Assembly: GCA_963737265.1 (NCBI GenBank)
Contig: CAVTRY010000013.1
Location: 384,001 to 448,000 of the forward strand
Reading direction: 5' to 3'
Source of the DNA: an uncultured delta proteobacterium
GTDB lineage: Bacteria; Myxococcota_A; Polyangia; Fen-1088
Length of the DNA stretch: 64,000 bases
Shown here: positions 25,641-30,418 of the stretch, one piece after another
How the letters are laid out: each line of letters begins with the position of its first letter
How positions within the stretch are numbered: the stretch's first letter is position 1
Position numbers and translations under genes: made by a program
The notes under the pieces: generated by a model
What the model was told of the DNA's origin: nothing
The model's input: the letters and a program-made list of their open reading frames with translations, nothing else
Databases searched by the model: none

Positions 25641-26077
25641 TTCCGTCAGTCGTCCAGTTTCCGTGTCGTGCGGCTCTTGCGCGCAAACCAACCGACCATA
25701 GCCACGAGCGCGAAAAGAATGGCCGGTGATGTCGATCGGTCGTTCAAACGAGCCGTAGTCAGGCGGCATGCGCACCCTCCTGAAGTACTATTTGCGGAGC
25801 TGGTCACGCCGCCGATTTCGGTGGTGCCGCCGGTCCCGGTCGCGCTGTTCGTGCCGCCGGAGCCCAGCTTGCCAGCGCTTTAGGTCGTGCCGATAGGTTG
25901 AGAGAAGATCGACGTGTACGTGACTGTAGTTGACGTAATGTTTTTATCAGGCATTGAAAGCAAAGTGGCGCTCGAATGGACCATCGCCACTATGTCGACG
26001 ATTTCCTCGCGGACTGGCAACTTTTCCCAGCCAGTAGTGTTAAGATACCCTTGGCTTTCATCCATGGGAGCGAATTA

Positions 26078-27523
26078 ATGAAGCGGAACGCGATTTCTGT
26101 TTTCGGTATGGGAGTACTTCTGACGTTTGGACTGCTCGCACCCGGTTGCGGAAGCAGCTTCGGTGGAAGCCCAGGTTCAGGCGGTGTCACCAGCACGGGC
26201 GGCAATTTCCTCTCGGGAGGAAGCACCAGCGCAGGCGGCAGCGGGAGCGGCGGTACGGTCGGATTGGGCGGCGTAAGTGGCAGCGGTGGCACATTGTCGT
26301 CAGGCGGTGTCGGCTCGGGCGGTACAACGGCCAGAGGCGGCAGCACGGGGAGCGGTGGAACATCGACTGGTGGCGTGGCAAGTGGCGGCACGATTGGCAG
26401 TGGCGGCACGATTGGCAGTGGCGGCACGATTGGCAGTGGCGGCACGATTGGCAGTGGCGGCTCGGTTGCATCAGGCGGGACCACGGCCAGGGGCGGGGCC
26501 AGTGGCGGTGCGGGCGGGGCAGCCGGAAGCCCCGGCACAGGTGGTTCGACGGTCGCCAGCGGCGGCTCGACGGCGACCGGTGGCTCGGGCGGTGTTTCGG
26601 TCGTGCAATGTGGCCTTCCGGCAATCGGCAGTGGCAACGTGGCAAAGCCAGCCGGAGCTGCAGGCAATCTCAAGGTCATCAATTGGGCTGGATTCCAAGG
26701 CGCCGTCAGTTACACCTTCGACGACGCCAACCAGACGCAAATTGACAATTACCCCACGCTCAATGGGCTTGGCGCTCACATGACATTCTACCTGATCACG
26801 AGCAAGAGCACGATGTCGAGCAGCGTTTGGCCGCAAGCGGTGAAAGACGGACACGAACTGGGCAACCACAGCCAAACTCACCCACAGATCGCCACCGCCG
26901 CTGAAATCGATGGGGCCACGGCATTTATCGAACAGCACTTTGGCGTAACGCCCTACACCATGGCCGCGCCATACGGTGACCCGAGCTACGAGCCATTTGC
27001 AAAGACACGGTTCCTCATCAATCGTGGCGTCAGCAATGCGCTAATCATGCCCAACGACAACACCGACCCATGGAATTTGTCTTGTTACATTCCGCCGGCT
27101 GGAGCACTCGCGAGCGCCTTCAACGCGCAAATCGATTCGGCGCAATCGGGCGGTGGGTGGCGGGTGGTCCTGGTCCACGGCTTCACCGGTGGAACCGATG
27201 GCGCCTATCAACCGGTCGCCATCGCGGAATTCGCGTCGGGCGTTACGCACGCCAAGTCTCTCGGCAACATGTGGCTCGACAGTGTCGAGAACGTGGGTTC
27301 TTATTGGGTTGCACAAAAGCTGATTTCGTCGACCGTCGCAAGCACATCGGGCAGCGACAAGACGTGGACCTGGACGCTCCCCAGTAACTTCCCTCCGGGA
27401 AAATGCGTCCGTGTCACCGTCGACGGAGGCACCCTCAAGCAGGGCGGCGCCACGCTTACCTGGAGCCCCAACGGTTACTACGAGGTCTCCCTGGATTCGG
27501 GCGCGCTCACCTTGTCGCCCTGA
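26078..27523 (+). CDS. Polysaccharide deacetylase (CE4/NodB-like) lipoprotein with Gly/Ser/Thr linker
   Basis: Lipobox LAPGC, SYTFDD, GHELGNHSQTH; linker has an 18-bp tandem repeat (SGGTIG x4). Confidence 0.85.
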   Translation: MKRNAISVFGMGVLLTFGLLAPGCGSSFGGSPGSGGVTSTGGNFLSGGSTSAGGSGSGGTVGLGGVSGSGGTLSSGGVGSGGTTARGGSTGSGGTSTGGVASGGTIGSGGTIGSGGTIGSGGTIGSGGSVASGGTTARGGASGGAGGAAGSPGTGGSTVASGGSTATGGSGGVSVVQCGLPAIGSGNVAKPAGAAGNLKVINWAGFQGAVSYTFDDANQTQIDNYPTLNGLGAHMTFYLITSKSTMSSSVWPQAVKDGHELGNHSQTHPQIATAAEIDGATAFIEQHFGVTPYTMAAPYGDPSYEPFAKTRFLINRGVSNALIMPNDNTDPWNLSCYIPPAGALASAFNAQIDSAQSGGGWRVVLVHGFTGGTDGAYQPVAIAEFASGVTHAKSLGNMWLDSVENVGSYWVAQKLISSTVASTSGSDKTWTWTLPSNFPPGKCVRVTVDGGTLKQGGATLTWSPNGYYEVSLDSGALTLSP

Positions 27524-27623
27524 CCTGAAACTACCTCAAGAGCGAGTGCCTCGAACGGATGGTGCCACTGCGCGAAGGGCATTTGCGACGGAAATTTCGG
27601 AATACATGGCTCACCACCGCTGT

Positions 27624-28189
27624 GGGTGCCTCCCTGAAACAGGGGCCCCAGCCGGGGGCTCGGTGAGGTAGCAACTTCTGGCGGAGTGCCGCCGAAAACG
27701 CAGATATGGAACAGCGAGGAACGGAGAAACAGAGACAGGATGACTTTACTGGGCAAATTATCGCCGCCTGCATCGAAGTCCACCGTCACCTCGGTCCCGG
27801 GCTGCTTGAGTCGGCCTACGAGCACTGCCTGGCGCGCGAGCTAGGCCTGCGTGGATTTCGCACGCAACGTCAGGTCGCGATTTCTCTGCAGTACAAAGGC
27901 ATTGACCTCGACTGCGGCTATCGCCTCGACCTCATGGTGGAAGGCCGTTTGGTCGTCGAAGTCAAGGCGGTAGAGCAGTTGCTTCCTGTCCACTTGGCAC
28001 AGTCATTACCTATCTCATGCCGGTGGGCCTGCTCGTCAATTTCCACGTCCCCGTACTTCGCGAGGGTCTCCGCCGCCTCGTCAACCCAACCCGTGATTCC
28101 TCTGGTCCTCCGTTCCTCCCTGTTTTTCCCTCCGATCCCACCTGCGCGGGGCGAGGTGAAGCCACAGCCCCCATTTCAGGGAAGCACCC
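27624..28189. mobile_element. 566-bp element with terminal inverted repeats and a 9-bp target-site duplication, carrying a GxxExxY gene
   Basis: Left GGGTGCCTCCCTGAAACAGGGG; right (reverse complement) GGGTGCTTCCCTGAAATGGGGG; CACCGCTGT at 27615-27623 and 28190-28198. Confidence 0.88.
27706..28095 (+). pseudogene. GxxExxY protein (PD-(D/E)XK nuclease-like), frameshift and small deletion near 28003-28017
   Basis: IEVHRHLGPGLLESAY, YRLDLMVE, VVEVKAV, then GLLVNF...GLRRLVN in another frame. Confidence 0.85.
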
Positions 28190-28281
28190 CACCGCTGTTG
28201 CGCGCTTCCCTTTCTCAACCGTGATCGCTACACTGTTGATCCGATCGCGACAGTCGACTTTACGAGACAAGGAGAACGACC

Positions 28282-29752
28282 ATGACGTACTCATCGCTGA
28301 CCAGAGCGTGCGCTGCATGCATGGGTGTGCTCGGCATGCTCGCCTGGCTTGACGGCTGCGATGGCGGTGGAGGCACGGCGGGCGCGGGCGGCGCGACGGG
28401 AACCGGCGGTACATCGAGCACCGGCGGAACCTCGGGCACGGGTAGCACATCGAGCACCGGCGGAACCTCGGGCACGGGTGGCACATCGAGCGCCGGCGGA
28501 ACCTCGAGCGCGGGTGGCACATCGAGCACCGGCGGGGCGGGTGCGGGCGGCTCGTCGGGCGGAGGCAGAACCTCGTCGAGCACGGGCGGCGCATCGGCCG
28601 CGGGCGGCACATTCGCGGCCGGTGGGACGTTCGAGCACGGGGGGAACGTCGGGTACGGGCGGCGTGTCGAACACGGGCGGCTCTTCGGCACCGCGTGACG
28701 GCGGCGCCAACCCGGATAGCTCTCCCGCCCCGGATGGCAGGCCCGACACGGGCGAGGGCGGGCCGGCCAGCGTCCGGCTGCAGGGACGTTTCGACATGAC
28801 GGACGCCACGCGGCCGTCCTTCGGCTGGTCTGGTAGTGCGATGATCGCGCGCTTCCAGGGCACCGGCGCCAACTTGCGCATCGACGGCAGCCCCAACCAG
28901 TTCGCGGTGGTCGTGGACGGCACGCTGGTTTCGCAAGTTCTCAAGGTCGTGAGCGGCACCACGCAATACACACTGGCGAGCGGCCTTTCCTCGGGCGTAC
29001 ACGACGTGGTGGTTTGGCGTCGCACCGAGGGCAACCAGGGCGAGAACCGCTTCCTTGGCCTCGACGTCGTGGGCGGGCAACTGCAAGCCCCTCCGGCGCA
29101 AGTCGATCGCCGCATCGAGATCTATGGCGACTCGATCACCGCAGGCTATGGAATGGATGGGGCCGGGCCGAACTGTGCTTTTACGCCCGACACGGAAGAC
29201 CACTACTTGACCTACGGCGCGCTGACGGCGCGCACGCTGGGCGCCGATCTCCACACCATCGCGTGGTCGGGCATCGGGATGTACCGAAACTACGGCGTCA
29301 GCGGCGCATCGCCCGATGCCATGCCGTCGGTGTACGCACGCACCCTGCCCACGCAGTCGGGCAGCGTGTGGGACTTCACCATCTGGCAACCGCATGCGGT
29401 GGTCATCAATCTGGGAACCAACGACGCCTCGACCAATGGAGATCCCGGCACGCCCTACGAGACCGCCTACCTGAGCTTCGTGCGCAACCTGCGCCAGAAA
29501 TACCCGAACACCTTTTTCGTGCTCACCATCGGACCCATGCTGGGCGGCAGCAGCCTCGCGGCCATCAGAGGGCACCTCCAAAATGTGATTTCGACCCGCG
29601 GCAGCGAGGGCGATACCAAGATGTCCTATCTTGAGTTCCCGGTGCAGGATGCGGCGGATGGTCTCGGTTGTGATTGGCACCCCAGCCCGACGACCAACGC
29701 CAAGATGGCAACCCTGCTCACCGCCGAACTCAAGACACGCCTAGGCTGGTAG
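28282..29752 (+). CDS. CE2-type SGNH/GDSL acetyl esterase with Gly/Thr linker, probable lipoprotein; +1 frameshift near 28630
   Basis: LDGC lipobox-like site, WSGS, RRTE, IEIYGDSITAGYG, INLGTND, DWHP; one extra T. Confidence 0.85.
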
Positions 29753-30210: not shown

Positions 30211-30418
30211 CTAGAGCACCGAACGGTTTGACTCCCGTCGTGAAATCGCGCATTTGCGTCGCGTCCCTGCGTTGCTCGTCGGTCAAATACGTCGAGTATT
30301 CTCCCTCGGCACCCGCCACCCACCCCACCGTCCCCTCGCTTCGCTCGGCCTCGCCGCGCCTTGGGCCGCTCGCAACTGCGCAATTTCACTCGGTCCCTCA
30401 AACCGTTCGGTGCTCTAG
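30211..30418. mobile_element. MITE (208 bp including both CTAG) with perfect 21-bp terminal inverted repeats
   Basis: CTAGAGCACCGAACGGTTTGA ... TCAAACCGTTCGGTGCTCTAG. Confidence 0.88.

Follow-up and report, generated by a model that had tools for sequence, protein, structure and literature searches.

A GxxExxY nuclease gene carried by a multicopy transposon without a transposase gene in an uncultured delta proteobacterium

The window analyzed here is a 64,000-nucleotide (nt) stretch of DNA from an uncultured delta proteobacterium (C13:384001-448000 of the source genome, G000; C numbers denote contigs of this genome and other G numbers its relatives), and within it lies a 566-bp unit, bounded by inverted repeats, that carries a gene of the GxxExxY (PF13366) nuclease family. 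We explain this unit, with a probability of about 0.85, as a dead member of a young family of ~39 non-autonomous transposon copies that is moved in trans by an ISKra4-type transposase and has a GxxExxY cassette as its cargo. The evidence consists of the copies themselves, their ends and duplications, an unoccupied site, a target motif, an insertion sequence with similar ends and the decayed state of the gene. In this explanation, the 22-nt element ends would be bound by an ISKra4-family (prokaryotic Mutator-like, DDE) transposase provided in trans, which would move the element and make staggered cuts 9 bp apart, whose repair gives the flanking duplication; it would favor sites 16 bp ahead of the -35 box of a sigma-70-type promoter, usually such that the promoter adjoins the right end of the element. 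The GxxExxY cassette, found elsewhere without these ends, would be older and would take no part in the jumping. The G000 assembly comprises 6.55 Mb in 25 contigs (63% G+C, completeness 99.49, estimated contamination 7.6%).

Copies, duplications and an unoccupied site

A blastn search of the window element against its own genome returned 44 alignments, corresponding to 31 full-length copies and 13 partial alignments at 8 further loci, or ~39 sites. Because similarity among the 31 full-length copies begins and ends exactly at the repeat ends (GGGTGC...GCACCC), a chance origin of the repeats and of the duplication is excluded. The majority consensus of the full-length copies is 579 bp long; 27 of them lie within 0-9 substitutions of it, a low divergence that indicates a recent burst, and the other four, which show 20-25 differences and a 10-nt deletion, constitute an older subfamily. 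Of the 31 full copies, 29 stand between perfect 9-bp duplications, in 28 different sequences, the two units of a head-to-tail dimer at C17:62354-63520 having one duplication in common. In the two full copies without a perfect duplication, one is offset by a base and the other has 2 mismatches. Four additional end-to-end copies are interrupted, two of them with perfect duplications, one with 2 mismatches and one with none, which brings the overall count of perfect duplications to 31 of 35 end-to-end copies. The only family matches inside the element are to PF13366 and TIGR04256, and no transposase is encoded.

The copy at C14:364642-365220 lies in repeated sequence. When the element and one duplication are removed in silico, a single CCGGGACTG is left, and the excised flanks are 99.6% identical over 235 nt to C7:311660-311894, which likewise holds a single CCGGGACTG. 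The C7 sequence is an unoccupied site, paralogous within the genome and not an allele in a relative. The initial annotation had described the 9-bp duplication, the 22-nt terminal repeats, an inner 25-nt repeat, a GxxExxY open reading frame (ORF) and the lack of an internal transposase, all of which are present where it placed them, and one of its two proposals, a non-autonomous transposon with GxxExxY cargo, is now the best-supported reading. The further copies with different duplications that it anticipated exist in number; the empty site that it looked for exists as a paralogous site in the same genome, with no allele in the 12 other genomes of the genus.

That search for an allele compared 2.2 kb around the window insertion with these 12 genomes and found the neighboring genes at 66-77% identity, on separate contigs. 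Two short matches to window positions 27536-27615 were considered as an orthologous empty site and rejected, since they reflect a transposase-gene fossil (see below). Among 185,579 species genomes, the outer end gave one exact hit, a solo end in a metagenome-assembled genome of the same family, no partner end being present within 1.5 kb when 3 mismatches were allowed. Contigs with the element occur in four soil-metagenome runs of a single study, most of them having the consensus form without the deletions and different flanking sequence; none of these contigs joins across the window insertion site, and no RNA dataset is among the listed holders.

Several later insertions have struck the family. 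Two copies are interrupted by an IS4-family element (C23:162589-164018, locus L002; C20:14672-16099, locus L003) of ~1.43 kb, which encodes a 438-amino-acid DDE_Tnp_1 transposase, has ends CATAGGCATTAACCC... and makes 11-bp duplications; we rejected it as a helper on account of these ends, the 11-bp duplications and its later insertion. A 189-bp miniature inverted-repeat transposable element (MITE) with the ends AGGGCCAACGC...GCGATGGCCCT (C13:548131-548319 and ~20 other loci, near-identical) interrupts one GxxExxY element, and one element copy has an insertion of a GC-rich repeat of ~117 bp (C20:7509-7626) with a GGGTTCCC-type palindrome at its end. Weaker relatives of this repeat occur elsewhere, with one similar stretch at window positions 30305-30355 (C13:414305-414355). 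RNA folding of one whole element paired the outer and the inner repeats (z = -4.3), as expected of any inverted repeat, and an Rfam search of the tandem dimer (L004) and of a stand-alone cassette locus (L005) gave just three chance-level matches of microRNA/Xist type, far below the gathering scores.

Cargo gene, target sites and the candidate transposase

The nuclease gene is intact in 13 of the 31 full copies, open via two compensating frameshifts in one, without its frame in the last domain residues in two, and disrupted in 15. Identical lesions are found at loci with different duplications: eight copies have lost 1 nt at consensus position 379 and five have lost 1 nt at position 470 (three copies carry both deletions), the start codon is missing in three, and three have gained 1 nt at position 366. 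Among the copies, the position-379 deletion and C488T are seen in all four possible combinations. Sharing of this kind suggests either that dead copies kept transposing or that copies exchanged sequence by gene conversion, and neither explanation requires the gene in cis. Because only 13 of 31 copies are intact and identical lesions recur at different sites, the nuclease appears to be cargo. The domain substitutions that distinguish the copies (13 synonymous, 21 non-synonymous) are close to neutral, and no copy has a stop codon within the element, the ORF running out through the right end into the flank.

An intact copy matches TIGR04256 at 140.8 bits (cut-off 35) and PF13366 at 138.9 bits over the full length. 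In an alignment of 25 sequences, G29, G31, Y37, D74, E84, Y102 and F116 show no variation, and E34 and K86 are kept in at least 90%; these residues appear to constitute the GxxExxY motif and a D...ExK triad. The structure model of the intact protein has a mean predicted local distance difference test (pLDDT) score of 93.6, and its best Foldseek look-alikes are Cas4, lambda exonuclease, Hjc resolvases and splicing endonucleases, albeit as weak matches (E 4.5e-3 or worse, template modeling score 0.41-0.49); a sequence search of the PDB with an E limit of 1 found nothing. The model makes a nuclease fold likely.

To characterize the insertion sites, we compared the hexamer starting at position 17 outward from each element end with TTGACA (background 0.0028 per position at up to 1 mismatch). 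At the right end, the hexamer has no more than 1 mismatch in 6 of 31 copies (binomial P 3e-10). Allowing 2 mismatches raises the number to 11 of 31 at this end (P 4e-10), with 4 of 31 at the left end (P 0.01), and several of these hexamers are followed 17 nt further on by a TAnnnT hexamer. For elements with p-MULT 3 transposases, Guerillot et al. (2014; PMC3942029) describe a peak of promoter detection at 16 bp from the right repeat and, for 13 elements of the ISKra4 group, a comparable but weaker signal at both ends. The target signature does not depend on the similarity of the ends, and it implicates the same transposase group.

A search of G000 with the 22-nt element end at up to 4 mismatches gave 76 hits, which are accounted for by element copies, one singleton with 4 mismatches and one pair of ends 2,120 bp apart at C20:66979-69098. 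The pair bounds a single-copy, 2,120-bp insertion sequence with ends GGGTGCCTAACCGAAACGGGGG and GGGTGCCTACCTAAACCGGGGG and the 9-bp duplication GGAAAGCGG; its left end is identical to that of the element at 19 of 22 positions and its right end at 17 of 22. A 466-amino-acid ORF within it matches NF033572 (ISKra4 family transposase) with E 3.6e-76 and 256.9 bits (cut-off 205) over positions 24-422 of 422, TCGACA stands at position 17 from the left end at its single site, and no GxxExxY gene is present. A second ORF of 141 amino acids lies downstream of the transposase gene (L001:2037-2459, the insertion sequence occupying L001 480-2599) and has no Pfam or NCBIfam match.

ISfinder is reported to list 9-bp repeats and GGG ends for ISKra4. 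In G000 there are 15 ISKra4-type matches. Around 7 of these, the neighboring 1.5 kb were searched for the element end with 8 mismatches allowed, and C20 alone gave a good match. Another ISKra4-like insertion sequence, 1,782 bp long, is present in 10 copies (C2:48037-49818 and nine further loci) that are 99.7-100% identical; it begins with GGGTG, has the ends GGGTGGGTTGCACGGGCCCGGG and shows perfect 9-bp duplications at 7 of the 10 copies, so that the GGGTG end type and the 9-bp duplication are traits of ISKra4-like elements within G000 itself. The initial annotation had suggested a search for an autonomous insertion sequence with the same ends and had named IS256 as an example of the DDE families with such duplications. 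An autonomous candidate was indeed found, although its ends match those of the element imperfectly; the IS256 assignment gives way to ISKra4, the end-matched element being of that type, and an IS256-type helper was rejected on this ground, no genome search for IS256 transposases having been made. Both families are placed among the prokaryotic Mutator-like transposases in the portion of PMC3942029 that treats them.

An older cassette and the competing explanations

Of 43 TIGR04256 matches in G000, all but one fall within element copies. The exception is a stand-alone gene of 156 amino acids at C22:198320-198790, between a comM-like gene and recA (upstream of recA), whose arms form a 33-nt, 94% inverted repeat of CACAGAG-type words with a 9-nt period and encode the tails TTECTEGAEDGEE and SVSSASSVPSVV. 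Among 13 genomes of the genus, the comM-recA cassette is present with an open frame in 7, reduced to remnants in 2, absent from 3 (one of which keeps 14 nt similar to the beginning of the left arm) and uninformative in 1. Between genomes, it is 75-80% identical at the nucleotide level, with pairwise ratios of non-synonymous to synonymous substitution (dN/dS) of 0.12-0.49 at dS 0.4-1.9, values that suggest an old, sedentary cassette under purifying selection. A 115-nt piece at C22:199962-200076, ~1 kb past the recA start, resembles the 3' end and right arm of the stand-alone cassette (83%), and recA may be flanked on both sides by cassette material.

Relatives of the element gene also occur without ISKra4-type ends. 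In G005, one covers consensus positions 41-514, at 88% identity to the window copy and 91% to the consensus, and those in G009 are 78-82% identical; the G005 and G009 copies match the consensus from position 41, 44 or 47 to 514-523, and between these species the gene has dN/dS values of 0.17-0.39. At 13 loci in G003, G004 and G009 there is a form of ~180 bp that has lost the ORF core, consensus positions 67/80-180 being joined to 455-536, and at 12 of the 13 aligned loci, those of G003 and G004 (the 13th is that of G009), this form sits inside another repeated shell with different ends. The G003/G004 shell (L009, L016-L023, L026-L028) has conserved flanks of ~70-100 nt and ends like GGAACCCTnnnAGGGCACCCCTTTCAAGGTG, with no clear target duplication by eye.

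Across the phylum, 26 of 200 other genomes contain the family, with at most 7 matches per genome as compared with 43 in G000. For 23 full-length homologues from this sample, we scored ungapped inverted repeats against 200 shuffles and displaced-window controls. An inverted repeat across the ORF beats all 200 shuffles in 12 of the 23, with arms of 25-45 nt made of phased 8-9-nt words, and no arm was seen in the other 11 by this ungapped test. Twelve of the 23 also beat the displaced-window controls; the high scorers L049 and L059 did not because they have extra arms nearby. These strong arms bear out the expectation of the initial annotation that inverted repeats would be found around GxxExxY homologues in general, and the inner inverted repeat belongs to the older cassette, separate from the outer element. 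We found no published account of a hairpin-armed GxxExxY cassette in the literature searched. In the part of a PD-(D/E)XK survey that concerns GxxExxY/PF13366 (PMC3424549), the function is entered as "Unknown" with the remark "multiple transfers".

Judging from the similarity of the ends, the length of the duplication and the target signature, the C20 insertion sequence is the most likely source of the enzyme that moves the element. Several observations weigh against the overall explanation. The C20 ends depart from the element ends at 3 and 5 of 22 positions, the similarity stops after the terminal ~23 nt with none further inward, and the insertion sequence is single-copy versus ~39 copies of the cassette element; cross-recognition of the element ends by the C20 transposase is plausible, and the actual driver could be lost or hidden in one of the gaps between the 25 contigs. 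At position 17, 16 of the 31 copies have no -35-like hexamer (up to 2 mismatches) on either side, the hexamer of the window copy has just 3 of 6 matches, and a consensus promoter scan made no call on the promoter-like pair of that copy. Gene conversion, rather than the jumping of dead copies, could explain some of the shared lesions, and the 30 relatives searched contain no element with these ends, which leaves no between-genome insertion polymorphism to view. It is unlikely, in our judgment, that another transposase moves the element in place of that of C20, be it the one of the 10-copy 1,782-bp insertion sequence or an ISKra4-type enzyme that is lost or unassembled: the imperfect C20 ends, the 25 contigs and the 7.6% contamination estimate would allow this, and the 10-copy element has the GGGTG start, the 9-bp duplications and, with its near-identical copies, an active look, but its end shares just the first 5 bases with the cassette element, its transposase falls below the ISKra4 cut-off (177.9 versus 205 bits) and C20 alone had a good end match among the 7 checked of the 15 ISKra4-type matches. 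We consider it highly improbable that the GxxExxY nuclease is the element's own mobility enzyme, which would make the element autonomous, or a required partner of the transposase, as TnsA is of TnsB in Tn7. The intact protein does keep D74, E84 and K86 and has a high-confidence fold that resembles PD-(D/E)XK nucleases, if through weak matches, the gene shows purifying selection between species, and a few intact copies could act in trans; yet the gene is damaged in 18 of 31 copies with lesions that recur at different sites, ISKra4-type DDE elements account for the ends, for the duplication of 9 bp and for the promoter spacing of 16 bp, the same gene exists elsewhere without these ends and keeps to a single site across the genus, and the C20 insertion sequence does without it.

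A separate matter, which leaves trans mobilization by an ISKra4-type transposase as our preferred reading of the outer element, is how the cassette came to lie inside it. The second proposal of the initial annotation was that a cassette bounded by the inner repeat had inserted into a MITE; the separate, older cassette agrees with this, whereas an empty shell, a MITE copy without the cassette, was not seen among the 76 end hits in G000. In its full form, in which the hairpin-armed cassette is itself mobile, inserted into an empty ISKra4-type MITE of ~83 bp and was then spread as a composite by the transposase, the idea is rather doubtful. It gains from the occurrence of the cassette without outer ends in G005, in G009 and upstream of recA, from the arms around 12 of 23 phylum homologues, from the patchy comM-recA site (7 present, 3 absent and 2 remnants in 12 informative genomes) and from the ORF-deleted form in the G003/G004 shell, which suggests repeated association with small mobile shells. 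It loses from the missing empty shell, from the species-level genome collection with its single solo end, from the cassette-shell junctions of the consensus, where no duplication or insertion signature is visible by eye, and from the stand-alone cassette, which is syntenic and diverged and looks sedentary; moreover, passive capture, in which the cassette was an ISKra4 passenger before the transposase gene was lost, explains the same structure, and four ISKra4 elements with extra genes are reported in the relevant part of PMC3942029. No empty shell was found, and both an active jump and a passive capture would fit. We regard as rather doubtful the thought that the cassette is an undescribed selfish element with its own insertion mechanism that invaded an empty ISKra4-type MITE. 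Were it true, one mobile element would ride another, the ~39 copies (13 intact) would be a natural experiment, and there would be a handle on what the nuclease cuts, its own arms being the obvious candidate substrate. As for the initial claim of direct evidence for how this orphan nuclease family moves, the data provide one within-genome route and not the cassette's own movement.

The window copy, related systems and meaning

The features of the window copy are collected in Table 1. The computed outer inverted repeat extends one base beyond the terminal repeats listed there (27624-27646 and 28167-28189; 23 nt, 87% complementary), and the inner repeat is 25 nt long and 88% complementary. Relative to the 579-bp consensus, this copy has 4 substitutions and lacks 13 bases: 1 nt near 28001, which is the recurrent position-379 lesion, and 12 nt behind 28017, private to this copy. 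The frame is lost after residue 99, and because of these deletions the ORF from 27706 matches PF13366 (E 4.5e-29) over profile positions 2-89 of 117 only; both deletions also appear as gaps in the alignment to the soil-metagenome contigs. The window copy is a decayed, dead family member and its gene a pseudogene, so that for the GxxExxY gene originally annotated here the family assignment stands, with the correction that its frame is broken.

Table 1. Coordinates of features of the element copy in the window
Feature	Position	Strand	Basis
9-bp target-site duplication, left copy CACCGCTGT	27615..27623	.	flank sequence
9-bp target-site duplication, right copy CACCGCTGT	28190..28198	.	flank sequence
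Whole element, 566 bp; read as a non-autonomous ISKra4-type transposon (mobile insertion cassette)	27624..28189	+	copy family
Left terminal inverted repeat GGGTGCCTCCCTGAAACAGGGG, 1 mismatch to family form	27624..27645	+	end search
Right terminal inverted repeat GGGTGCTTCCCTGAAATGGGGG (minus-strand reading)	28168..28189	-	end search
Inner GxxExxY cassette, approximate extent (consensus ~41-536)	27664..28146	+	part common to relatives without outer ends
Inner inverted repeat, left arm: ACAGAGA-like words, encodes N-terminal tail EQRGTEKQR	27710..27734	+	repeat search
Inner inverted repeat, right arm	28100..28124	+	repeat search
GxxExxY / PF13366 nuclease pseudogene	27706..28085	+	profile match, consensus alignment
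Weak promoter-like pair TTCCCT-N17-TACACT, starts 16 bp past element right end	28206..28234	+	TTCCCT = 3/6 matches

The element lies between a polysaccharide deacetylase gene (25976-27523) and a CE2/GDSL esterase gene starting at 28282, upstream of which the promoter-like pair is located. The esterase gene (28282-29752) is seemingly split over two frames, one (28282-28698) with a lipoprotein-like signal and a Gly/Thr/Ser linker and the other (28325-29752) with the CE2/GDSL body; the frames overlap in a repeat with an 18-nt period (28355-28500), in which there may be a frameshift or an assembly error. Window positions 27536-27623 and 28199 to ~28260 hold a fossil of ~80 nt of the 3' end of a transposase gene, split by the element. 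By motif reading the fossil is of integrase type, rve-like; it translates as KSECLERMVPLREGHLR and then, in a different frame, EYMAHHRC, and G002 keeps an open version of this gene of 179 amino acids.

Examples of mobile insertion cassettes named in PMC3913671, which cites Chen et al. (1999) and De Palmenaer et al. (2004), are MIC231 of Bacillus cereus, mobilized in trans by the IS231A transposase, and the qnrD-bearing mic elements. Like these, the present element has inverted ends of insertion-sequence type around a gene that is not a transposase gene, a target duplication, no internal transposase and a related autonomous insertion sequence in the same genome; unlike them, it has ends of ISKra4 type rather than IS231/IS4 type, a far higher copy number (~39), a preference for sites 16 bp upstream of promoters, and, as cargo, a repeat-bounded nuclease cassette where a metabolic gene or a resistance gene would be usual. 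As a mobile insertion cassette the outer element is well proven; its kind is known and its cargo unusual. Where the initial annotation saw its best candidate for an undescribed system, the cargo is indeed unusual and the cassette unstudied in the searched literature, whereas the outer element belongs to a known class.

With the ISKra4-group (p-MULT 4) insertion sequences the element shares the GGGTG start, common to both resident ISKra4-type elements, the 9-bp duplications and, at its insertion sites, a -35-like box whose distance from the repeat is set at 16 bp. It differs from them in having no transposase gene, and its -35 signal is biased to one end (11 right versus 4 left), whereas PMC3942029 gives promoters on both sides for those elements of the group that have near-perfect repeats. 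A literature search on ISKra4 and MITE found no gene-carrying MITE derived from ISKra4 among the papers listed. Repetitive extragenic palindromes (REP) and their hairpin-forming doublets (REPIN), together with REP-associated tyrosine transposases (RAYT), are similar in combining short hairpin-forming repeats with a single small enzyme gene; the element described here lacks an HUH/Y1 transposase and would instead be multiplied by a DDE transposon with 9-bp duplications. REPINs are not known to make such duplications.

GxxExxY/PF13366 is a widespread nuclease family, and G000 provides a clean, datable case in which, on our preferred reading, the gene was multiplied by an ordinary DDE transposon and not by the nuclease. 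Two behaviors of the cassette are found in this one genome, fixed and apparently selected upstream of recA on the one hand and in ~39 copies between ISKra4-type ends on the other; a high GxxExxY copy number may therefore signify hitch-hiking, which calls for caution in annotation. The promoter-proximal targeting published for ISKra4-group insertion sequences would have been inherited by a derivative without a transposase, and such inherited targeting could put many small elements directly upstream of host promoters.

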